From assembly GCA_012965045.1 (NCBI GenBank), contig DTSZ01000001.1, forward strand, positions 503,763 to 567,762: a DNA stretch of 64,000 nucleotides, given 5' to 3'. The notes under the pieces were generated by a model. The model saw nothing but the letters and a program-made list of their open reading frames with translations. It was not told the DNA's origin and ran no database searches. This stretch comes from Candidatus Saccharimonadota bacterium. Its GTDB lineage: Bacteria > Patescibacteriota > Saccharimonadia > Saccharimonadales > DTSZ01. Made by a program: the position numbers and the translations under genes. Of the stretch, positions 5,995-63,464 are shown one piece after another. Position 1 is the first letter of the stretch; every line of letters begins with the position of its first letter.

Positions 5995-6987
5995 TTAGAA
6001 TCGTCGTGATTTGTTTTGGACTTTTTTAGCATATGACTTAAGGAATAGTCGGCCGCCACCAATAATCACAATCAAACCACCGACAACACCAAGGATAATC
6101 GGCCACGGTAACACCCAAAAGGTTTCATTGACTGCAATAATATCACCACCATCACCATACGATAGGTTGCCCGCTATGGTATAGCGACCAAATTGATATT
6201 TTTCTGACAAATCATTTTCGAACCGACGAATACTGTCTGGCAGGGCAAAGCCGCGCCGAGTGTTGTCGCTATTAAACTCTACTACCTCTTTGACGTTGCC
6301 GACAAAGTTAGAAACTTCAATCCTACCAAACGGAGCTGCGTGAGTGTTACCATTATTTTGAATACGAGCAACAATTTGATCTGGGCTTGCTGTAAAGAAC
6401 GATCCCAATTCTCCATCTTTAGCTGCACCGATTTCTAGTAGACTCAGGTTCTCTACCTCTTCGCCTGCTACGTTTAGAAGAACGATAGTACCAACACTTG
6501 CTGCAAGTGTTACATCTTGATCTGGGTCTGCTTCATTGGCAGCTGTAAATCTTACAATTCCATAATGTCCGCCAGGTGTAGCGTTAGTTGGTACATCCAA
6601 GGTGACTGGGATATCTATAGTCTCGTCTGGTTGTAGCGTAAAGCTGTCAATTGGCTGGAAGTATGTTCTAATACCAAACTCATTTGGTTCTGTTGATTCC
6701 TTAACGATAATTTGCGGCGTACCACTCTCATCTTCTGATGGTAAGAAGTCATTAAAGTTAACCACTACCGTTAATGGGTTGGCTGTGACATTTTTAACTG
6801 TAATAGGGTTCTGGAGTGTTATCCTCTGCCCTGGCTCGGCTTCCGCCTCCTCGACAAGTGTCGACAGCGCAAGACCATTCCCTTGACTGTTCTGTCCGTT
6901 TGCTAAAGATGTAAATCCGAAAATACTTACTGTTGCTATCACTACCATCAACATCATTTTCTGTAGCACAGATAGACGTGAAACCAT
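5995..6987 (-). CDS. DUF916/DUF3324-like (CscA-like) cell-surface protein with C-terminal TM anchor
   Basis: 330 aa with a signal peptide. Two Ig-like halves carry PGGHYGIVRF and QFGRYTIAGNL motifs at the positions typical of DUF916/DUF3324. A single C-terminal TM (WPIILGVVGGLIVIIGGG) is followed by a basic tail KKVQNKSRRF. Assignment rests on remembered family architecture, not a search. Confidence 0.6.
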   Translation of the reverse strand: MVSRLSVLQKMMLMVVIATVSIFGFTSLANGQNSQGNGLALSTLVEEAEAEPGQRITLQNPITVKNVTANPLTVVVNFNDFLPSEDESGTPQIIVKESTEPNEFGIRTYFQPIDSFTLQPDETIDIPVTLDVPTNATPGGHYGIVRFTAANEADPDQDVTLAASVGTIVLLNVAGEEVENLSLLEIGAAKDGELGSFFTASPDQIVARIQNNGNTHAAPFGRIEVSNFVGNVKEVVEFNSDNTRRGFALPDSIRRFENDLSEKYQFGRYTIAGNLSYGDGGDIIAVNETFWVLPWPIILGVVGGLIVIIGGGRLFLKSYAKKVQNKSRRF

Positions 6988-7073
6988 TTTTCCTCCATTT
7001 TATTTATCAACTTCTGATAACTATAGCTAAACTACTTACGCTAAGCAAGAATATCAATTAATAACAGTTGGTT

Positions 7074-8174
7074 TTAAAACGTGGCCGTAGCTACATATGT
7101 AAGCGTTGTTGAATATATACCCTTTGGCTGGTTTTCGGGAATATTAACAATGTAGCTGGCTGTGAAGGTTTTTCTGTCGCTTGGGATTGGGCTGACAGCA
7201 ACAGTATCACCAGATATGAACTTATATACATTGGGTGTGTTGTAGTTACTGGCAACAGTTGCCGTACCCGGGCCAGCTGGCTCTAAACCAACGACTGGTT
7301 GTGTGTTTGCGCGAAGGTTGAGCCCAAACTGCTTCGTGCCTGTTTGACTTGCCGTCGGGGACGCCATGTTTGTAATTGTATTATTTCCAGATGTCATTGT
7401 AGTGCCAAGGACAGAAACTGCATACCCAAACTCGGCATTGGTATAGGCTAAGAATTTTGAAGTGCCAGTTTTTGTGGTGTTACTTGATAACTCACCAAAA
7501 CTCAGCTGAAATCCTGTAGCGGTACCACAATCATTGGCTAGGATTGTCGTACCAACACAAAATGTCAAAAACGGCGGAACATACGCTTGAATGTTAAAGC
7601 GAGTATTAAGCGCGAAAGCTAATCCACCTTGGTCAACCACATTACCGGTGATGCGACCATCAGTACTATCATAGGTCCGTATTCGAACATAATGAGATCC
7701 CGCTGTATCTGGATTTATCAAGTTCCCAAAATCGAAACTGGTCGTTGCGACGGTCGTATTTTGGGCGGCTACTCTATTTACAACAATGTAGTTGTTGTCA
7801 GTATATGTACCGTTATACGTACTCGGGTGAACCACAAAACTATCAGCTATAGGCTGGTCTGCCTCGCCTGATTGGTCGTCTATTGAAGCATTAGTCACAT
7901 CGATACCGCTCGGCGCAGTACAAGGTTCTGAAGGTATTGGACTGTTTGAGCAATATTCAAATTCAATTGATCCTACATTCCCCCCAAGTTCAAGGTCGAA
8001 CGTATAATCGTGGTTTACAGCTAGCTGGCTCGGCGTCGATGAAGATAGCTCTATGGATCGATCACCAATATCAGCCGCTGTGACATGTTTTGCGAAATAC
8101 GGAAACGGCACACTTGAAATCAAGAGTGCCGTTATTCCGATACTTGCTAGTGTTTGTGCAAGTCTATGTCGCAT
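7074..8174 (-). CDS. Secreted surface protein, paralog family (CSNSPIPS motif, C-terminus ...TLTYVATATF)
   Basis: 366 aa with a signal peptide. Shares RSI-x-LS...EFEYCSNSPIPSEPCTAPSGIDV with the two 450-aa paralogs and FGLNLRANT with the 248-aa protein. Ends in an aromatic residue. Confidence 0.7.
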   Translation of the reverse strand: MRHRLAQTLASIGITALLISSVPFPYFAKHVTAADIGDRSIELSSSTPSQLAVNHDYTFDLELGGNVGSIEFEYCSNSPIPSEPCTAPSGIDVTNASIDDQSGEADQPIADSFVVHPSTYNGTYTDNNYIVVNRVAAQNTTVATTSFDFGNLINPDTAGSHYVRIRTYDSTDGRITGNVVDQGGLAFALNTRFNIQAYVPPFLTFCVGTTILANDCGTATGFQLSFGELSSNTTKTGTSKFLAYTNAEFGYAVSVLGTTMTSGNNTITNMASPTASQTGTKQFGLNLRANTQPVVGLEPAGPGTATVASNYNTPNVYKFISGDTVAVSPIPSDRKTFTASYIVNIPENQPKGIYSTTLTYVATATF

Positions 8175-8186
8175 TACTATTCAATC

Positions 8187-9536
8187 TTAGAAGCTTGAAG
8201 TAGCTATGTAAACAATTGAGGTGTTATACACACCAGTAGGTGTTGTAATTGCAGCCGTACCACCAAAGTCAATTACTAACATTTCGTCGTCTAACACTGT
8301 AGAGCTTGAAGCAATTGTGTCAGCTGTTAGGTCGTTAGCAACGAATGTGTATTGAGCAGGTGTATCGTATTCTGCGTCTTCAGCTAGGTTCGAAGTCGTA
8401 CCGTTGGTTACGTCAATTGATGAAATTGTCATACCAAAGTTTTCAGTACCAGCTACGATCGCTGCTTCTGTAGCACCAACTGCGTTAATACAGCCGTTCA
8501 CTTGCGAGGCGGCGCCGTCAGTACAGTCTGCACCATTCTTAGAAAGGTAGCCGTCGTTGGTGTCGTTTGCACCACCAACACCACCACCGCCGTCGTCGTT
8601 GACGTCTTGGCCAGCGTCGGCGAAGTAGCTAATAGTTGCACCATTAGCAGCGTTGGTTCTAATCATGGCATAGGCGTTACTGTCTTCGGCTGAAGCAGTG
8701 TTAACGCTTGTTGAATCTAAGACACCCATGTCAATGTCATTGCCGCTTATGTCATCACAGTCGTTTGTGGTCGCTGCGTCAGTATCACCGACACAGAACT
8801 CTAAGACTTCCTGAACTCGAGCTGTAATAGTTAGCGTGTCAACAGTACTCATTGCGATACCGCCGTCATCTTCGTAAGAAGACGTTAAGTCTTGTGCATC
8901 AGCATCATTGTCTGCGTACAAACGAGCATAGAATGAACCAAAGTTGTTGGCACCAGCGGTGTCACTTGGGTTAATAATGTCCGCAGTTGCATCAACAGGA
9001 GAAAGAGTTATACGTACATATCGTTCAGTTGAATAGTTTGCACTTGTTGAATGTTCAATTACAAGCGTTGTTCCGTCTGATCGAAGCGTGTCAGTTATAG
9101 CTTCTTCATCAAAACTCCAGTCAGCAGAGACATCAGTTGGAGATGCAAAACCAGAGTTGTCGTCCGTTTCAACAGTTAGGGTGACGTTGTCTGACACATC
9201 ACCGTCGTTGTCGGTGTCAAAGTCCGGTACATCTAAACCTTCGGTAGCAGTACAAGCGTCAGATGGAATTGGACTGTTAGAACAGAACTCAAGCGTATAT
9301 CCTTCAAAGTCAGCCACGGTCGTTGTGTCGCCCGGGTTGAAGTAAAACTCGTGAGTATAGGTAACTCCAACCGCACTAACGCGGCTATCTGAGATCGCGA
9401 TAGATCGTTGGTCTAATTGCGCTGCGTCAACGCGTTGAGCGCTGAGCATAAATGGTGCGAAGCTAGCAAAAACTAATGCAGCTATCTGCAACCACGCAGC
9501 AACAGACGAATTTAAATTAATATTGAAGTGTTTCAT
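8187..9536 (-). CDS. Secreted acidic surface protein, tandem duplicate copy 1 (C-terminus ...SIVYIATSSF)
   Basis: The track ORF starts at 9545 (MSVMKHF...). ATG 9536 (MKHFNINL) matches the start of copy 2. Signal peptide, EFCSNSPIPSDACTATEGLDV motif, very Asp/Thr/Ser-rich. Confidence 0.75.
   Translation of the reverse strand: MKHFNINLNSSVAAWLQIAALVFASFAPFMLSAQRVDAAQLDQRSIAISDSRVSAVGVTYTHEFYFNPGDTTTVADFEGYTLEFCSNSPIPSDACTATEGLDVPDFDTDNDGDVSDNVTLTVETDDNSGFASPTDVSADWSFDEEAITDTLRSDGTTLVIEHSTSANYSTERYVRITLSPVDATADIINPSDTAGANNFGSFYARLYADNDADAQDLTSSYEDDGGIAMSTVDTLTITARVQEVLEFCVGDTDAATTNDCDDISGNDIDMGVLDSTSVNTASAEDSNAYAMIRTNAANGATISYFADAGQDVNDDGGGGVGGANDTNDGYLSKNGADCTDGAASQVNGCINAVGATEAAIVAGTENFGMTISSIDVTNGTTSNLAEDAEYDTPAQYTFVANDLTADTIASSSTVLDDEMLVIDFGGTAAITTPTGVYNTSIVYIATSSF
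8254..9536 (-). repeat. Tandem duplication block, copy 1 (1283 bp, identical to 9772-11054)
   Basis: Offset 1518 bp. The encoded proteins are identical from MKHF to ...IDFGGTA. Shadow ORFs 8502..8693/10020..10211 and 9088..9345/10606..10863 are identical. Confidence 0.85.
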
Positions 9537-9646
9537 GACAGACATGTCTCCTTATTTGTTTTTGTTTTAGCTAGGGTACTATCTAATTTAACACAAGCAT
9601 TTCACTAATAACAACTATTTATCCACAGGTACAGTAGTGAAACAGA

Positions 9647-9673
9647 AAGAACGACCAGGTCTTGGTCGTTCTT
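9647..9673 (-). terminator. Hairpin terminator between the two duplicated genes
   Basis: On the minus strand: AAGAACGACCA-AGACC-TGGTCGTTCTT (11-bp perfect stem) followed by T-rich TCTGTTTC. Confidence 0.5.
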
Positions 9674-9704
9674 GTATCCGTTAGATGGAGGTGGATATTG
9701 AAAG

Positions 9705-11054
9705 CTAGAATACTGCGGTAGCAATATACACGATAGACGTATTGTATACGCCAGTCGGTGTAGTGATGTTTGCCGTACCACCAAAGTCAATTACTAACAT
9801 TTCGTCGTCTAACACTGTAGAGCTTGAAGCAATTGTGTCAGCTGTTAGGTCGTTAGCAACGAATGTGTATTGAGCAGGTGTATCGTATTCTGCGTCTTCA
9901 GCTAGGTTCGAAGTCGTACCGTTGGTTACGTCAATTGATGAAATTGTCATACCAAAGTTTTCAGTACCAGCTACGATCGCTGCTTCTGTAGCACCAACTG
10001 CGTTAATACAGCCGTTCACTTGCGAGGCGGCGCCGTCAGTACAGTCTGCACCATTCTTAGAAAGGTAGCCGTCGTTGGTGTCGTTTGCACCACCAACACC
10101 ACCACCGCCGTCGTCGTTGACGTCTTGGCCAGCGTCGGCGAAGTAGCTAATAGTTGCACCATTAGCAGCGTTGGTTCTAATCATGGCATAGGCGTTACTG
10201 TCTTCGGCTGAAGCAGTGTTAACGCTTGTTGAATCTAAGACACCCATGTCAATGTCATTGCCGCTTATGTCATCACAGTCGTTTGTGGTCGCTGCGTCAG
10301 TATCACCGACACAGAACTCTAAGACTTCCTGAACTCGAGCTGTAATAGTTAGCGTGTCAACAGTACTCATTGCGATACCGCCGTCATCTTCGTAAGAAGA
10401 CGTTAAGTCTTGTGCATCAGCATCATTGTCTGCGTACAAACGAGCATAGAATGAACCAAAGTTGTTGGCACCAGCGGTGTCACTTGGGTTAATAATGTCC
10501 GCAGTTGCATCAACAGGAGAAAGAGTTATACGTACATATCGTTCAGTTGAATAGTTTGCACTTGTTGAATGTTCAATTACAAGCGTTGTTCCGTCTGATC
10601 GAAGCGTGTCAGTTATAGCTTCTTCATCAAAACTCCAGTCAGCAGAGACATCAGTTGGAGATGCAAAACCAGAGTTGTCGTCCGTTTCAACAGTTAGGGT
10701 GACGTTGTCTGACACATCACCGTCGTTGTCGGTGTCAAAGTCCGGTACATCTAAACCTTCGGTAGCAGTACAAGCGTCAGATGGAATTGGACTGTTAGAA
10801 CAGAACTCAAGCGTATATCCTTCAAAGTCAGCCACGGTCGTTGTGTCGCCCGGGTTGAAGTAAAACTCGTGAGTATAGGTAACTCCAACCGCACTAACGC
10901 GGCTATCTGAGATCGCGATAGATCGTTGGTCTAATTGCGCTGCGTCAACGCGTTGAGCGCTGAGCATAAATGGTGCGAAGCTAGCAAAAACTAATGCAGC
11001 TATCTGCAACCACGCAGCAACAGACGAATTTAAATTAATATTGAAGTGTTTCAT
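9705..11054 (-). CDS. Secreted acidic surface protein, tandem duplicate copy 2 (C-terminus ...SIVYIATAVF)
   Basis: 449 aa. AGGAG lies 8 nt upstream of ATG 11054. Identical to copy 1 apart from the last ~21 codons. Confidence 0.8.
   Translation of the reverse strand: MKHFNINLNSSVAAWLQIAALVFASFAPFMLSAQRVDAAQLDQRSIAISDSRVSAVGVTYTHEFYFNPGDTTTVADFEGYTLEFCSNSPIPSDACTATEGLDVPDFDTDNDGDVSDNVTLTVETDDNSGFASPTDVSADWSFDEEAITDTLRSDGTTLVIEHSTSANYSTERYVRITLSPVDATADIINPSDTAGANNFGSFYARLYADNDADAQDLTSSYEDDGGIAMSTVDTLTITARVQEVLEFCVGDTDAATTNDCDDISGNDIDMGVLDSTSVNTASAEDSNAYAMIRTNAANGATISYFADAGQDVNDDGGGGVGGANDTNDGYLSKNGADCTDGAASQVNGCINAVGATEAAIVAGTENFGMTISSIDVTNGTTSNLAEDAEYDTPAQYTFVANDLTADTIASSSTVLDDEMLVIDFGGTANITTPTGVYNTSIVYIATAVF
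9772..11054 (-). repeat. Tandem duplication block, copy 2
   Basis: See 8254-9536. Confidence 0.85.
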
Positions 11055-57905: not shown

Positions 57906-57982
57906 GCACCCGTAGCTCAGCTGGATAGAGCGCCTGTCTTCGGAACAGGAGGTCATAGGTTCGAATCCTATCGGGTGTACCA
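57906..57982 (+). tRNA. tRNA-Arg (anticodon UCG), CCA encoded
   Basis: GCACCCG-TA-GCTC-AGCTGGATA-GAGC-G-CCTGT-CTTCGGA-ACAGG-AGGTC-ATAGG-TTCGAAT-CCTAT-CGGGTGT-ACCA. Hand-folded, 77 nt. Confidence 0.85.
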
Positions 57983-58126: not shown

Positions 58127-60514
58127 ATGATTACTACTACCGTGAAGCGATATCTTAATAAACTGGTTAAACTATTAACCGACACCTACCGTGACCCTCG
58201 ATTTATTATTACGAGTTTATTTGCGCTCGTTGGGTTTTTAATAACTACTGCACAGGTTGTAGAAGCTGATGAACTCGATAATTTTGAGAAGTATATATTT
58301 GAACTGATCAACCAACTGGGCGATGGGTTATATTCATTTTTTTATATAATTACTCAGTTTGGCTCATTATTATCACTAGTGGTCTGGGCGGCTGCTATAG
58401 CTTTTTATTTTAGAAAACGAGCAGCGCTAGCCGCTGTTGTATCAGGTTTTTTAGGTTGGCTAATCGCAAAGCCTTTAAAAGCGTATATCGGGCGAGCCAG
58501 ACCAGGCGAAATTCTTGACAGCTTGAATATCTTTACAGATGAAAAATTTAGTGGATTGGGATACCCTTCGGGTCACGCCACCTTATCTGCCGCTGTTGCA
58601 ACAGCAGTTTTTTTGTACCTTAAGCCAAAAAATCGCAAGTACTTGCTTATATTTGTAGCGCTAATCGGCATAAGCCGAGTTTATCTCGGTGGCCACTTCC
58701 CTCGTGACATTATAGGTGGCTGGTTCCTTGGTGTTCTCGCAGGCTGTATTGGTTCATTTTTAATCGGCAGCTCTAGAGACGCTGCCTCTAACAAGTACAT
58801 CAAAAATGTATTAAATAAGAATGGTATAAAGGCTGCAGCAATTAAAGAGTTCAGCGGGGATGCTCGTGGGTCAAGACCTATTTTTATTACACTTGAAGAT
58901 AAAACTAAACTGTTTGGCAAAATAGTAACTAGCCAAGAGCAGGCTGCCGACTGGTTGTTTAAAACGTTTCGTTTTTTTAAATACAAGAACTTCAAAGACG
59001 AGGACCCCTACCTTAACCCAAAACGACACACCGAACATGAAGCGTTCGTAGCAGAATGGGCTCGTAAATTTGGCGTCAACACACCTCAAGTTATTAAGAT
59101 CGTTCATGTCAAAGATAGCCAGTGGTTATTAGTACAAGACATGGTAGACGCTGAGCCACTCGACAAGCAAAAAAAAGTAAGTCAAAAAACTTTAGAGCAA
59201 ACCTGGCGACAAATTTTAAAACTTCATGATGCAGATATTGCTCACCGTGATTTACGAGCAAGCAACGTACTTGTCGATAAAGACAAGCAGCCATGGATTA
59301 TAGACTTTGGTTTTGCAGAAGTGGCTGGTGATGAGATGAGGAAAAGAGTTGATATTGCCGAATTCTTAACAACCACCAGTATGCTATTTGGTGTTAAAAA
59401 ATCTCTTGCTGCTGCTCTGGCAGTTTTAGAGAAACAAAAACTGCAAGAAGCTGCTCCGTATGTTCAGCCGGCAGCTCTCAGTGGAGCCACTACTAGTGCT
59501 ATTAAAAACGACAAGCAAACTTTCGAGCAACTACAAACTGCCTTAAAAGACATGCATGATAATCAGGAAGTTTTTGAACATCAAGCCCTATTACGAATAA
59601 CAAAGAAACAAATTATAAACCTGGCCTTGGTCGCAGTGTTATTCTTCATAATTATTCCTCAATTTAATGTATTTAAAGACTCGTTCGCATCGCTATCTGA
59701 TATAAATTTTATTTACATACCAGCGGTCATAGTAGCTTCCATGACAACATATATCTTTGCAGCAGGCACCATAACTACCATTCCCTCTGTACCTGTTAGC
59801 TACCGCAAGGCAGTTATGGCGCAGTTGGCCGGTTCGTATGCAAGTAAGTTAGCGCCTCGTGGGCTTGGTTCGAGTGCGGTTAATTTACAATTTTTGCGCA
59901 AACAAGGCATGTCGCTGTCGCGTGCTACGTCTGTTATGCTAACCGACAAATTTCTTGGCTTCTTGCTGTTTGTTATTCCGTTTGGTTCGGTTGTAGTAAT
60001 TAGCGGTCAATCATCACTTTCACAGCTACTACCGGATATGAAAACGTACTACGTTTATATAGCGCTGGGGATAATTTTGGCCGGCATTACTGTATTGGTC
60101 GCAAAACGAACCTGGCAAGAAAAAATTATTCAATCGCTAAAAAAGAGCTACTTTGAAATAAAGCAACTTGCCTATAGACCGCGATCGTTGCTGCTTGCTG
60201 CTTTATTTTCTCTCGGGGTAACGGTAAGCTACCTCCTCACTTTATATTTGTGTTTCACAGCATTACAAGTCGACATATCGATACTACAAATAATCGTCAC
60301 GTATGCTGCCGCTACCTTCGCGAGTTCGGTCACACCGACGCCAGGTGGCTTAGGTGGTTTCGAAGCTGGATTAATTGCAGCAATGGTAAGTTTTGGCGTG
60401 GAACAGTCTGCGGCTTACTCGGTGGCTATCCTCTATCGTTTAGCTACCTTTTGGCTACCTATTCCTTTAGCTCTAGCCGCTTTTAAGTTTGCTAGGTCTA
60501 AAGACATTATTTGA
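58127..60514 (+). CDS. Three-domain membrane protein: PAP2 lipid phosphatase, protein/lipid kinase-like domain, flippase-like (LPG_synthase_TM/UPF0104) domain
   Basis: 795 aa. PAP2 motifs KPLKAYIGRARP / PSGH / SRVYLGGHFPRD. Kinase motifs HRDLRASNVLV and IDFGFAE. C-terminal multi-TM region with TPTPGGLGGFEAGLIAAM. Confidence 0.75.
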   Translation: MITTTVKRYLNKLVKLLTDTYRDPRFIITSLFALVGFLITTAQVVEADELDNFEKYIFELINQLGDGLYSFFYIITQFGSLLSLVVWAAAIAFYFRKRAALAAVVSGFLGWLIAKPLKAYIGRARPGEILDSLNIFTDEKFSGLGYPSGHATLSAAVATAVFLYLKPKNRKYLLIFVALIGISRVYLGGHFPRDIIGGWFLGVLAGCIGSFLIGSSRDAASNKYIKNVLNKNGIKAAAIKEFSGDARGSRPIFITLEDKTKLFGKIVTSQEQAADWLFKTFRFFKYKNFKDEDPYLNPKRHTEHEAFVAEWARKFGVNTPQVIKIVHVKDSQWLLVQDMVDAEPLDKQKKVSQKTLEQTWRQILKLHDADIAHRDLRASNVLVDKDKQPWIIDFGFAEVAGDEMRKRVDIAEFLTTTSMLFGVKKSLAAALAVLEKQKLQEAAPYVQPAALSGATTSAIKNDKQTFEQLQTALKDMHDNQEVFEHQALLRITKKQIINLALVAVLFFIIIPQFNVFKDSFASLSDINFIYIPAVIVASMTTYIFAAGTITTIPSVPVSYRKAVMAQLAGSYASKLAPRGLGSSAVNLQFLRKQGMSLSRATSVMLTDKFLGFLLFVIPFGSVVVISGQSSLSQLLPDMKTYYVYIALGIILAGITVLVAKRTWQEKIIQSLKKSYFEIKQLAYRPRSLLLAALFSLGVTVSYLLTLYLCFTALQVDISILQIIVTYAAATFASSVTPTPGGLGGFEAGLIAAMVSFGVEQSAAYSVAILYRLATFWLPIPLALAAFKFARSKDII

Positions 60515-61355: not shown

Positions 61356-61505
61356 CAAAGTTATCATGAGTGAGACGACTTTTTTAATTTGCGATATGAT
61401 TTGATCAGAAACACAAACCACAACGCAATATATACTGACATTTATCCCAAGTAAAAATATATAATCTTGACTTTTAATCCAAAAAACTAGTGCTATTATA
61501 TAAAC

Positions 61506-61961
61506 ATGATAAGAGCCCTAGTCGGTGTTTTCACCGTAATAATTGGTGTAGTAGCGTTATGTGTCTACTTATACCAACCAGCTGGGGTGCCCGCTCAGAT
61601 TGGAATCCTGCAAATCGACGACCAGTATGGATGGGAGAAAATAACCGGCCAAGGCAACCATAGCGAAGTTGGTAAACTGATTCACAGCAAAGCAGTTCTT
61701 GACTATGACTACGGCGAATCCGTTCGGACTGATCCTTCTGGTGATTTTGCATTAATTAGCGAAATACCGGTCGAAGGCGAAAACGGCTATACGGCACGTG
61801 TGTATGAATTTGACGACAATATTGAATTAGTTGTAAACGTTGACAGTGTAGATACTCGACTGGATGTACTGCCCCGGACCCTCTACGCTTTTGGTCATTG
61901 CGAAGACGCACAGTGCAAACAAGCAATTATTACGCTGGCAACCAACTTAAAAGAGATCTAA
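61506..61961 (+). CDS. Membrane-anchored hypothetical protein
   Basis: 151 aa. N-terminal TM ALVGVFTVIIGVVALCVYLY. Confidence 0.5.
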   Translation: MIRALVGVFTVIIGVVALCVYLYQPAGVPAQIGILQIDDQYGWEKITGQGNHSEVGKLIHSKAVLDYDYGESVRTDPSGDFALISEIPVEGENGYTARVYEFDDNIELVVNVDSVDTRLDVLPRTLYAFGHCEDAQCKQAIITLATNLKEI

Positions 61962-61969
61962 AAAGTAAA

Positions 61970-62015
61970 ACGCCAGCTTGTTGTTTCGTTCCAAAAGGAA
62001 CGGGTAAGCTGGCGT
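61970..62015 (-). terminator. Two-tier hairpin between convergent genes
   Basis: ACGCCAGCTT...AAGCTGGCGT (10 bp) encloses CGTTCC-AAAA-GGAACG. On the minus strand it is followed by TTTACTTTTT. Confidence 0.55.
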
Positions 62016-62088
62016 AGGCCCAAGAATTTCCCGGGGCTTAAATTTGAACGATTGAACTACATCACTTCCTTTCGATCGTATATCGACT

Positions 62089-62742
62089 CTAGCAAGGCTC
62101 GCCGTTGGGGCGAGTGCAGGGTGCCGGAGCAGCGCCGCAACCTCCGAGGGCACAATCGCCCGTCGAACAGCCGCGTGGGTTTGAATGTGGCCCGTACAGT
62201 CCGTATACTTCCTGCGCCGTATCAGTACGCGTTGCTGCACCAACCGTCAGGATCCACATCGAATCAGGGTTAGAACTTCCAGCTTGAATGTGGTAGTAAA
62301 TGTCGAGCGTTGCCTCTGGCGATATCTCGTTACCGAGTATATCGATGCGGCGAGCTCCACTTGCGATCAAGTCGCGCTCCATGTCTTCCGACACGTCAAA
62401 GGTGCCTGAAGCTGGACCGTCCTCGTAGGTCAGCATCCAGACCTGGCAACCGGTAGCCTGGTAGTTGGTCAAGCTCGCATAGTCTGGCCCGGAGTTGTCC
62501 TGGCCTCCATGGAGGTTCACGACAACGTGCGACGGCACGTAGGACTCGATGCTCGGATCAGATCCGAAGCCAACGAGCTTGCCGTCGTCATCGTCCCTGC
62601 AAAGCAAGCTCTGGTCGAACTCGCAGTAGTAGTAATCGCCGTCGATGGCGTTGGCCGCCCCAGCGTTACCCCAAAGGGCAAGGAACACCAGAGACAACAC
62701 AACCAAGATCGGAATGAAGTAGTTCCTGTAAACGTTCAACAT
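62089..62742 (-). CDS. Secreted Cys-rich hypothetical protein encoded by a high-GC block
   Basis: The track ORF starts at 62829. ATG 62742 has GGAGGT 4 nt upstream and gives MLNVYRNYFIPILVVLSLVFLALWGNAGAANA (signal peptide). C-terminus GCSTGDCALGGCGAAPAPCTRPNGEPC. Confidence 0.7.
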   Translation of the reverse strand: MLNVYRNYFIPILVVLSLVFLALWGNAGAANAIDGDYYYCEFDQSLLCRDDDDGKLVGFGSDPSIESYVPSHVVVNLHGGQDNSGPDYASLTNYQATGCQVWMLTYEDGPASGTFDVSEDMERDLIASGARRIDILGNEISPEATLDIYYHIQAGSSNPDSMWILTVGAATRTDTAQEVYGLYGPHSNPRGCSTGDCALGGCGAAPAPCTRPNGEPC

Positions 62743-62800
62743 GTTACCTCCTAAAGGTAAAGTGAATGAGAATTTCCCATTCAATAAACATGCTGACATT

Positions 62801-62829
62801 AAATTAACACGATTATGCTTATTTGTCAA
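62801..62829 (-). promoter_or_regulatory. Candidate promoter of the high-GC gene
   Basis: On the minus strand: TTGACA (62829-62824), a 17-nt spacer, then TAATTT (62806-62801). Confidence 0.35.
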
Positions 62830-63014
62830 TATAAGTATATAATCGGTAATCTGTTTATTGACAATAAAAAGAGCAGACTAGCTGTCTTTATTCATTATCC
62901 ACCTCACATCTTTTGGATAATAACGATTACACCCAATCCGCTCATGTCTATTTTACCAAGCCGTTATATAAAATCAACAACGCTTGTGGATAACTGCTTT
63001 GCTAGACTAGAGTA

Positions 63015-63464
63015 ATGAACGTCCATTTTATATGCCGCGGTAATGCATTTCGAAGCTTTATTGCCGAGACTTACCTTCGGTCTTTGCAATTGCCAGACGT
63101 ATCAGTTTCGTCGTCTGGTACCATCGCCGCCGACTACAAGCAGCCCAACGAAAAGTATCATGCACTTGTTGTGGCAGAGCTCGAAACCCTAGGCTACTCA
63201 GACTTTATTAACCCCAAATGGGCCAAAACAACAACCCAAGCCATGCTTGATACCGCAGACATATGCATTTTAGTTAATAGCATTGTTTTAGAAGAATTAC
63301 ACGGCAAACACTTTGCGGTCAGCAATTACCACGTTTGGGATATTGACGATTACGACGAGGGGGCGAACCGCACCGACCAGTCGCGAACACATTTGTCGGT
63401 CATTAAAAAAACAATTCCCAAAATCATTCAAAGAGTTGATGATTTTGTAGCAGATCAGCTTTAA
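63015..63464 (+). CDS. Low-molecular-weight protein-tyrosine phosphatase / ArsC-family protein
   Basis: 149 aa. N-terminal VHFICRGNAFRS (C-X5-R-S P-loop). Confidence 0.75.
   Translation: MNVHFICRGNAFRSFIAETYLRSLQLPDVSVSSSGTIAADYKQPNEKYHALVVAELETLGYSDFINPKWAKTTTQAMLDTADICILVNSIVLEELHGKHFAVSNYHVWDIDDYDEGANRTDQSRTHLSVIKKTIPKIIQRVDDFVADQL

Follow-up and report, generated by a model that had tools for sequence, protein, structure and literature searches.

The highest-GC stretch in 64 kb of a Candidatus Saccharibacteria scaffold is a block of gene size that is confined to one coding sequence, and the composition of the gene is best explained by horizontal acquisition from a donor of higher GC content. 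We regard this explanation as fairly probable, on a basis that is compositional only. The preliminary description of this DNA had proposed such a gene-sized, compositionally foreign block, and the block is real. The whole 64-kb stretch that was analysed is referred to below as the window; its host scaffold (929,678 bp; ANAN14-1_SAMN02727529 scaffold_1) comes from Lau Basin hydrothermal-plume metagenomes.

A GC-rich block confined to one coding sequence

The features of the gene and its surroundings, in the direction of transcription, are as follows.

62828..62857, minus strand: promoter-like site, TAAACA-18-TATATT, in a leader of 26-28% GC
62747..62752, minus strand: Shine-Dalgarno sequence AGGAGG, 4 nt ahead of the ATG (cctcct on the plus strand)
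62089..62742, minus strand: coding sequence (CDS) of the predicted 217-aa orphan protein, ATG at 62742..62740 and stop codon at 62091..62089
62647..62742, minus strand: signal peptide, recognised by inspection, residues 1-32, MLNVYRNYFIPILVVLSLVFLALWGNAGAANA, cut before IDGD
62092..62646, minus strand: mature protein, 185 aa, pI 4.06, with 28 Asp+Glu, 8 Lys+Arg and 13 Tyr
62401..62526, minus strand: blade-like segment, residues 73-114, VVVNLHGGQDNSGPDYASLTNYQATGCQVWMLTYEDGPASGT, the sole part that resembles anything known
62092..62169, minus strand: Cys-rich C-terminal tail, residues 192-217, CSTGDCALGGCGAAPAPCTRPNGEPC, with five Cys, the last residue being Cys; local DNA up to 73% GC
61960..62015, minus strand: intrinsic-terminator-like hairpin followed by UUUACUUUUU, with arms at 61971-61979 and 62006-62014 and an inner stem

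The block was extreme in each of the three measures that the preliminary description had proposed as checks, namely, sliding GC content, GC3, and tetranucleotide composition. The GC content of the CDS is 57.3% (GC1, 57%; GC2, 47%; GC3, 67%), compared to a mean of 43.7% for the window and 43.7 ± 3.0% for sliding 654-nt windows, and the GC maximum of the whole 64 kb is the 654-nt window at 62061 (z = 4.6). The genes used for comparison were 57 non-overlapping ORFs of ≥100 aa, a crude set that covers 84% of the window; the native baseline for composition represents ∼73 kb out of a ∼930-kb genome. GC3 was 0.63 to 0.67, depending on the start chosen, versus 0.39 ± 0.05 in the 56 other ORFs (z = 5.6). 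The second-highest GC3 among the 57 ORFs was 0.49, which leaves this CDS as the sole outlier, and its codon-usage log-score was also extreme within the same set (z = −4.9). The CDS ranked second among 1,267 sliding windows in tetranucleotide distance from the window (z = 4.0), and the top-ranking window, which begins at 62051, overlaps the GC-rich block. This extreme distance is driven mainly by GC content. The GC-normalised dinucleotide signature (delta*) was ordinary (rank 467 of 1,267), in a test that is noisy at 654 nt.

The shift in composition starts at the start codon and stops at the stop codon, in agreement with the match between GC shift and CDS that had been claimed. GC3 is 0.80 in codons 1-20, so that the shift is present from the start codon onward. 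The 100 nt upstream of the CDS have a GC content of 26-28%, which bears out the AT-rich, genome-like upstream region described earlier, and the 3′ untranslated region (62020-62088) has 41%. The 8.7 kb past the end of the window ranges from 39 to 46% GC. The earlier counts in 60-nt samples were reproduced (62101-62160, 73.3%; 62161-62220, 60.0%; 62401-62460, 63.3%; 62461-62580, 58.3%), and a neighbouring sample at 63015-63074, previously put at ∼43%, was measured at 41.7%, close enough for the count to be accepted. GC3 is uneven inside the gene, with 0.77 in codons 1-120 and 0.56 in codons 121-217 (Fisher P = 0.0013).

The statement that five of the six frames are open across the block proved incorrect. 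The coding frame is the sole one that runs through without interruption, its own stop codon being the single stop; the other two minus-strand frames have 6 and 8 stops, and the plus-strand frames have 2, 13, and 3. Because the mean for the window is 11.4 stops per frame, two of the noncoding frames are strongly stop-depleted. The order GC3 > GC1 > GC2 in the CDS is the pattern expected of a true coding sequence with a GC-rich origin.

An identical 217-aa protein (P0001) has been called in several public assemblies, and the NCBI TPA annotations (HIA92036.1 and HIO88019.1) call only its last 115 aa (P0002). The position of the AGGAGG motif favours the 217-aa start over an upstream ATG (236 aa, the JGI call) and a TTG (246 aa). 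The site at 62828..62857 matches the promoter consensus and is functionally putative. The terminator region (61950-62095, minus strand) had a predicted folding energy of −42.3 kcal/mol (z = −2.66), and the U-tract of the hairpin adjoins the stop codon of a convergent 151-aa gene. With its AT-rich leader, AGGAGG motif, predicted signal peptide, and hairpin plus U-tract terminator, the gene is complete and intact, and it forms a predicted transcription unit of its own.

Codon usage was as deviant as base composition. At third positions, C accounted for 41% in the CDS versus 21.5% in the baseline, G for 26% versus 17.5%, and A for 11% versus 29%. The codons TTA, CTA, ACA, AGA, CGA, AAT, and AAA are absent, and TAC and AAC are used near-exclusively for their amino acids, as might also be seen under strong translational selection. 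The fraction of G-ending codons for Glu, Gln, and Lys (NNG) was 0.81, compared to 0.30 ± 0.07 in native ORFs (z = 6.9), and that of C-ending NNY codons was 0.77 (z = 3.5). Among the Ala, Gly, Pro, and Val four-fold codons, many host-like T- or A-ending ones remain. In native genes, the preference for C at NNY codons and that for G at NNR codons are anticorrelated (r = −0.40); for example, the native gene for the ATP synthase beta subunit has an NNY-C of 0.63 and an NNR-G of 0.30. The possibility of a highly expressed native gene was ruled out, since the CDS is extreme at NNG and NNC together, unlike native genes. This combined bias is a mutational GC signature and not one of native, expression-linked translational selection.

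The amino acid content of the product deviates in the same sense. There is 1 Lys versus 8 Arg, for a K/(K+R) of 0.11 compared to 0.54 ± 0.17 in native ORFs, and the GARP/FYMINK ratio ranks first among the 57 ORFs. Amino acid usage is moulded over long times by mutation bias. It is independent of synonymous sites, and codon and amino acid usage, as evidence that goes further than GC content, each independently favour an evolutionary past at higher GC. Lawrence and Ochman reportedly related GC1, GC2, and GC3 to genome GC by regression in their work on amelioration. Regressions of this type closely reproduced the GC1, GC2, and GC3 of the host, and when applied to the GC3 of the CDS they gave a source genome of ∼59% GC, or ∼64% from codons 1-120.

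The predicted product and its resemblances

The preliminary description had called the product secreted and Cys-rich, and this characterization stands: inspection identified a Sec-type signal peptide, there are eight Cys (residues 40, 48, 99, 192, 197, 202, 209, and 217), and both of the segments that had been quoted are present. The signal peptide has a basic n-region (R6), a hydrophobic stretch at residues 9-24, and A-N-A at positions −3 to −1. The GC3 of its codons is 0.75, which makes it part of the GC-rich gene rather than a leader of native origin. Inspection of the sequence revealed no Cys or lipobox in the signal peptide, no LPXTG motif, and no C-terminal hydrophobic segment. The product has, by inspection, the features of a Sec-exported soluble protein (n-h-c organization, small-x-small cleavage motif, no lipobox, no anchor). 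Because lipobox, LPXTG motif, and hydrophobic tail are all lacking, the protein is expected to be released or held noncovalently outside the cell. The even number of Cys would permit four disulfides. An effector or toxin role for the product is purely conjectural.

AlphaFold2, run without an alignment, gave a pLDDT of 39.8 for the full-length chain and 33.5 for the mature form, and the models were unusable. A helix was placed at residues 2-25 with a block-mean pLDDT of 75-88. Both low-confidence models have a beta-hairpin at residues 89-106 (strands 89-96 and 99-106).

Homology searches show the 217-aa protein to be an orphan. When 5.8 billion clusters were searched by k-mer and HMMER, the protein itself was the sole match. 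An exhaustive phmmer search of 1.84 billion representatives returned the protein and seven weak, repeat-summed matches (E values of 3e-8 to 8e-4), namely, five beta-propellers of the SBBP/PQQ_2 type, one DUF2963 repeat protein, and one Calx-beta protein. There was no match to the product in Pfam (E ≤ 0.1 and E ≤ 10), NCBIfam, PDB sequences, PHROGs, or PADLOC, nor in IMG/VR, the GTDB representative genomes, or a tblastn search against phages and plasmids. Close relatives in Actinomycetota were sought in the homology searches, and none were found, nor were any relatives at all; paralogy with the adjacent 151-aa orphan was considered and rejected. The literature contained nothing on the 217-aa gene or its genome. 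The orphan status fits a donor lineage that is absent from sampling.

The propeller matches all involve the same segment. Query residues ∼72-116 were matched repeatedly to 4 to 12 tandem units of each weak match, and the full-sequence E values arise because a single query segment is summed over these 4 to 12 tandem blades. The best single-unit pairwise score was 17.8 bits (E of ∼250 library-wide). A profile of 30 blades scored 18.9 bits against residues 73-114, a score that none of 5,000 shuffles reached (shuffle maximum, 9.2), so the resemblance is not a composition artefact. The gain of the profile over the pairwise blade score was almost none, and the family was chosen post hoc from a huge library. 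The Pfam SBBP and PQQ_2 models did not match the product even at an E value of ≤10. Alignment of residues 65-118 to the rest of the protein, as a search for a second blade or internal repeat, was no better than with shuffles, and the same result led us to reject a second blade at residues 129-168, which had been considered with an oligomeric propeller in mind. The blade resemblance is best treated as a lead that is nonsignificant at database scale, and it possibly reflects a similarly shaped beta-hairpin.

The SBBP (PF06739) and PQQ_2 (PF13360) proteins, such as P0006, a ‘PQQ-binding-like beta-propeller repeat protein’ from Acidobacteriota, are also secreted, and the SGPDYA..Y.ATG..W...Y.DGP segment of the product (∼40 residues) resembles their blade consensus, VFVTGsSeGatsGeDYATVAYdAATGAqLWvarYdGP. 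These proteins contain 5 to 8 or more tandem blades, whereas the 217-aa product has a single motif without repeats. The product also differs from them in its extra acidic and Cys-rich segments and in its failure to match the Pfam models. One propeller match is named from Acidobacteriota, and relatives occur on Hymenobacter (Bacteroidota) plasmids as SBBP repeat proteins; judged from these sequences, the propeller-repeat family is not specific to Actinomycetota. The two propeller matches whose contigs were read are on contigs of 68-70% GC, with gene GC3 values of 0.87-0.88.

Origin of the gene

The neighbours of the gene are housekeeping genes (MurB, Ddl, Mur ligase, FolD, and ABC transporters). 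Neither an integrase or transposase nor flanking repeats were found around the gene, and no tRNA adjoins it, the nearest being 4 kb off at 57906, and a search for mobile context yielded no phage, plasmid, or viral matches. Two direct repeats (D1/D2) that flank 61452-62844 were considered as insertion scars; they are short, AT-rich, and in opposite order and were judged to be due to chance. The 795-aa neighbour is a PAP2/kinase/flippase-like fusion whose best non-self homolog is 41% identical, and no gene order was shared with the loci of two of its relatives. The GTDB-representative collection contained no copy of the species, and a scan of JGI metagenomes with the 151-aa neighbour found nothing.

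The gene and its flanks are also present in contigs from JGI ‘Mariner’ (64 kb), JGI ‘Lau’ (15 kb), and Logan SRR8626143 (29 kb, three samples), each of which spans both junctions. A fourth contig, of 839 nt, from ENA (k127; SRR1217567) covers the 3′ junction, ends 13 nt past the start codon, and includes 172 nt of native flank, which takes in the shared terminator and the final part of the neighbouring gene. The five assemblies are 100% identical, with identity to the scaffold extending over 0.8 to 20 kb, and over 11 to 20 kb in those that cross both junctions. Because they are clonal, they offer no variants for a test of selection (dN/dS).

These contigs bear directly on whether the block might be a fragment of a higher-GC organism that was wrongly joined into the Saccharibacteria scaffold. 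Such an error could be suspected from the compositional outlier status of the block in a metagenome assembly and from the separate 839-nt contig left by the ENA k127 assembly, but that contig itself carries native flank. Three assemblies from different pipelines and samples cross both junctions at complete identity, and a fitting Shine-Dalgarno sequence and terminator lie precisely at the junctions. The chimeric assembly that had been named as a possible refutation is excluded on these grounds, and we assign an artefact next to no probability. It is also very unlikely that the true product of the block is a different one (for example, a structured RNA, the product of an antisense gene, or that of another frame), with the 217-aa ORF as a by-product of stop-poor DNA. 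Two plus-strand frames with just 2 or 3 stops and the NCBI TPA call of only the last 115 aa would fit that idea, but the full 654 nt are open in the minus-strand coding frame alone, and this frame has an ATG after AGGAGG, a canonical signal peptide, and GC3 > GC1 > GC2 periodicity. A search of the block against Rfam gave no match at an E value of ≤1, and antisense ORFs over the block do not exceed 81 aa.

The main rival is that the gene is a native, lineage-specific orphan with a gene-specific composition that arose without transfer, for example through selection on mRNA or DNA properties, through the Gly/Ala/Pro/Cys-rich content of a secreted protein, or through local biased repair. We consider this unlikely, yet a good deal less so than an artefact or another product. 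It agrees with a shift whose limits are exactly those of the CDS and which has host-like regulatory signals on either side, with the lack of mobile-element hallmarks and the ordinary dinucleotide signature, and with the absence of a donor homolog among about 15 billion proteins; amino acid content moreover explains part of the GC excess (GC2 of 0.47 versus 0.39 in baseline ORFs). It is opposed by the finding that the shift is largest at synonymous sites, where G- and C-ending codons are both raised, a combination seen in no native gene. The low K/(K+R) and the seven unused codons indicate long residence under GC-biased mutation, and none of the 56 other ORFs in the window, including the secreted and surface orphans, comes near these values. 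A further, rather improbable reading is that the gene is the degenerate remnant of an SBBP/PQQ-like propeller gene from a high-GC bacterium, in which one blade was re-used behind a signal peptide. The profile score of residues 73-114 against shuffles, the five independent family members that are the top non-self matches in the exhaustive search, and the high GC of the two contigs that were read all speak for a remnant. The best single-domain score with its library-wide E value of ∼250, the repeat summation behind the full-sequence E values, the slight improvement brought by the profile, the silence of the Pfam SBBP and PQQ_2 models, and the lack of a second blade or internal repeat speak against it, as do the similar scores of the unrelated DUF2963 and Calx-beta repeat families. 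Similarly doubtful is the idea that the protein represents a new fold or family that was acquired from a higher-GC bacterial host or evolved against it. The secreted, disulfide-locked acidic module, with one blade-like hairpin and a Cys-knot-like tail, would then attach to the surface of the host or act as a toxin on the host or on competitors.

Several observations run against transfer. The shift is exact to the CDS between a host-like promoter, Shine-Dalgarno sequence, and terminator, an arrangement that a newly inserted fragment would not usually show. There is also no mobile-element context, the delta* is ordinary, many four-fold codons are host-like, and GC3 is uneven within the gene. These points could be explained by partial amelioration, by the loss of foreign flanking DNA from a reduced genome prone to deletions, or by a mosaic history.

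Under horizontal acquisition, the preferred explanation, the CDS would have taken shape in a genome with a distinctly higher G+C content and would have entered the Saccharibacteria lineage recently enough for its synonymous sites to be unameliorated. The GC3 values point to a donor GC of roughly 59-64% or more. The product would be exported by the Sec pathway, with predicted cleavage of the signal peptide after ANA. The mature product would be small, very acidic, Tyr-rich, and probably beta-rich, and four disulfides could stabilise it. With no membrane or cell wall anchor, it would act outside the cell, and the best guess is that it would recognise a ligand, carried by another cell or present in the environment, and serve as an adhesin- or lectin-like protein or as an antagonistic factor. 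An origin of the gene from Actinomycetota or from the host of the organism is conjecture.

Parallels and significance

ORFans were reportedly studied by Daubin and Ochman and amelioration by Lawrence and Ochman, and recent horizontal transfer is reportedly the source to which atypical ORFans have been assigned. Genes gained recently, and ORFans, usually have a higher AT content than the genome that carries them. Like such ‘alien’ ORFans, the 217-aa gene is short and stands alone; its GC3, codon usage, and amino acid usage are deviant, it has no homologs, and its neighbours are housekeeping genes. Unlike the usual examples, it is 14 points GC-richer, it is without a mobile context, and its shift is confined to the CDS. 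The phenomenon is a familiar one in kind, that of an atypical ORFan, and is less common in its direction, with the gene GC-richer than the host genome.

Horizontal gains reported in Saccharibacteria include mammal-associated gene sets and the arginine deiminase system, and these gains rest on phylogenies of proteins of known function with identifiable donor phyla (PMC7427843, PMC8764695). The 217-aa gene resembles the reported gains in that it is an accessory gene, a candidate for acquisition, with a possible bearing on an epibiotic lifestyle. It differs from them in having no homolog, in that the case for it is compositional, and in its occurrence in a marine plume lineage that has no close relative among sequenced genomes.

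The value of the gene is that of a flagged, clean, and well-documented candidate and not of a discovery; it adds another orphan of atypical composition to those already known. Saccharibacteria are epibionts of other bacteria and have very small genomes of their own, which makes their secreted accessory proteins prime candidates for the recognition or attack of hosts. A recently acquired gene with a donor of ∼60% GC or more could hint at the partner of the epibiont or at the gene pool that it samples. If the reading of a new, host-derived family were true, the composition of the gene would be a rare direct pointer to the host of a plume epibiont.

Composition within the target gene and its TPA annotation

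The G+C content of the target gene (62089-62742, minus strand), which encodes a secreted, Cys-rich orphan protein of 217 amino acids, was not uniform along its length. G+C at third codon positions (GC3) was 0.77 in codons 1 to 120 versus 0.56 in codons 121 to 217 (Fisher P = 0.0013), and G+C at second codon positions (GC2) changed in the opposite direction, rising from 0.38 to 0.59 between the same two segments. In the NCBI TPA annotation of two MAGs, only residues 103 to 217 of the protein were called (P0002, 115 amino acids). The start of P0002 lies near the GC3 step at codons 120/121. Possible explanations of the step and the shorter call are a mosaic origin of the gene, amelioration that proceeded unevenly, a frameshift in the assemblies of these MAGs, or simply the behavior of the gene caller.

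Genes flanking the target

Genes adjoining the target on either side in the window
61506-61961, plus strand: ORF of 151 amino acids, convergent with the target, with an N-terminal transmembrane helix and a C-terminal CxxxxC motif
63015-63464 onward past the window end (8046-9728 of L001, a matching locus in a Lau Basin assembly): low-molecular-weight phosphotyrosine phosphatase and NOX/ferric-reductase-like membrane flavoprotein

The stop codon of the 151-amino-acid gene adjoins the U-tract of the target's terminator. Its base composition was host-like; it had no family matches in Pfam, NCBIfam, PHROGs, or PADLOC, and a JGI scan with it returned no match. The flavoprotein, with Ferric_reduct, FAD_binding_8, and NAD_binding_1 domains, is an unusual enzyme to find in a reduced epibiont genome of iron-rich plume origin.

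Assemblies of different Lau Basin samples, made with different pipelines, gave four loci (L001, L002, L009, and L010) that all cover the last 3 to 12 kb of the window; these were 100% identical across 11 to 20 kb, with no SNPs among them over that length. This identity reflects either a clonal population or common read sets.

Other distinctive genes in the window

1 to about 4640, minus strand: giant ORF (>1,546 amino acids) running past the window start
5995-11054, minus strand: four ORFs in a row (330, 366, 452, and 449 amino acids), none with a Pfam match
58127-60514, plus strand: 795-amino-acid protein in which PAP2 phosphatase, protein kinase, and LPG-synthase/flippase-like transmembrane domains are fused

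The giant ORF begins with a signal/transmembrane segment and has a high content of Gly, Thr, Ser, Asn, and Asp; its C-terminal part appears beta-helix-like. It holds several of the most tetranucleotide-deviant segments of the window and is probably a large surface protein. The native maximum for C-ending codon preference (0.64) was found in the two ∼450-amino-acid ORFs of the four-ORF run, in which G-ending codon use was low, a combination expected of highly expressed native genes.

The three-domain architecture of the 795-amino-acid protein also occurs in other Patescibacteria/Saccharibacteria, at no more than 41% identity, and in Actinomycetota (Nocardia, Micromonospora, and Ilumatobacteraceae), at 28 to 32% identity over most of its length. 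The hosts of cultivated Saccharibacteria are Actinomycetota. Saccharibacteria and Actinomycetota may have exchanged this gene long ago, which would account for the presence of the architecture in both groups.
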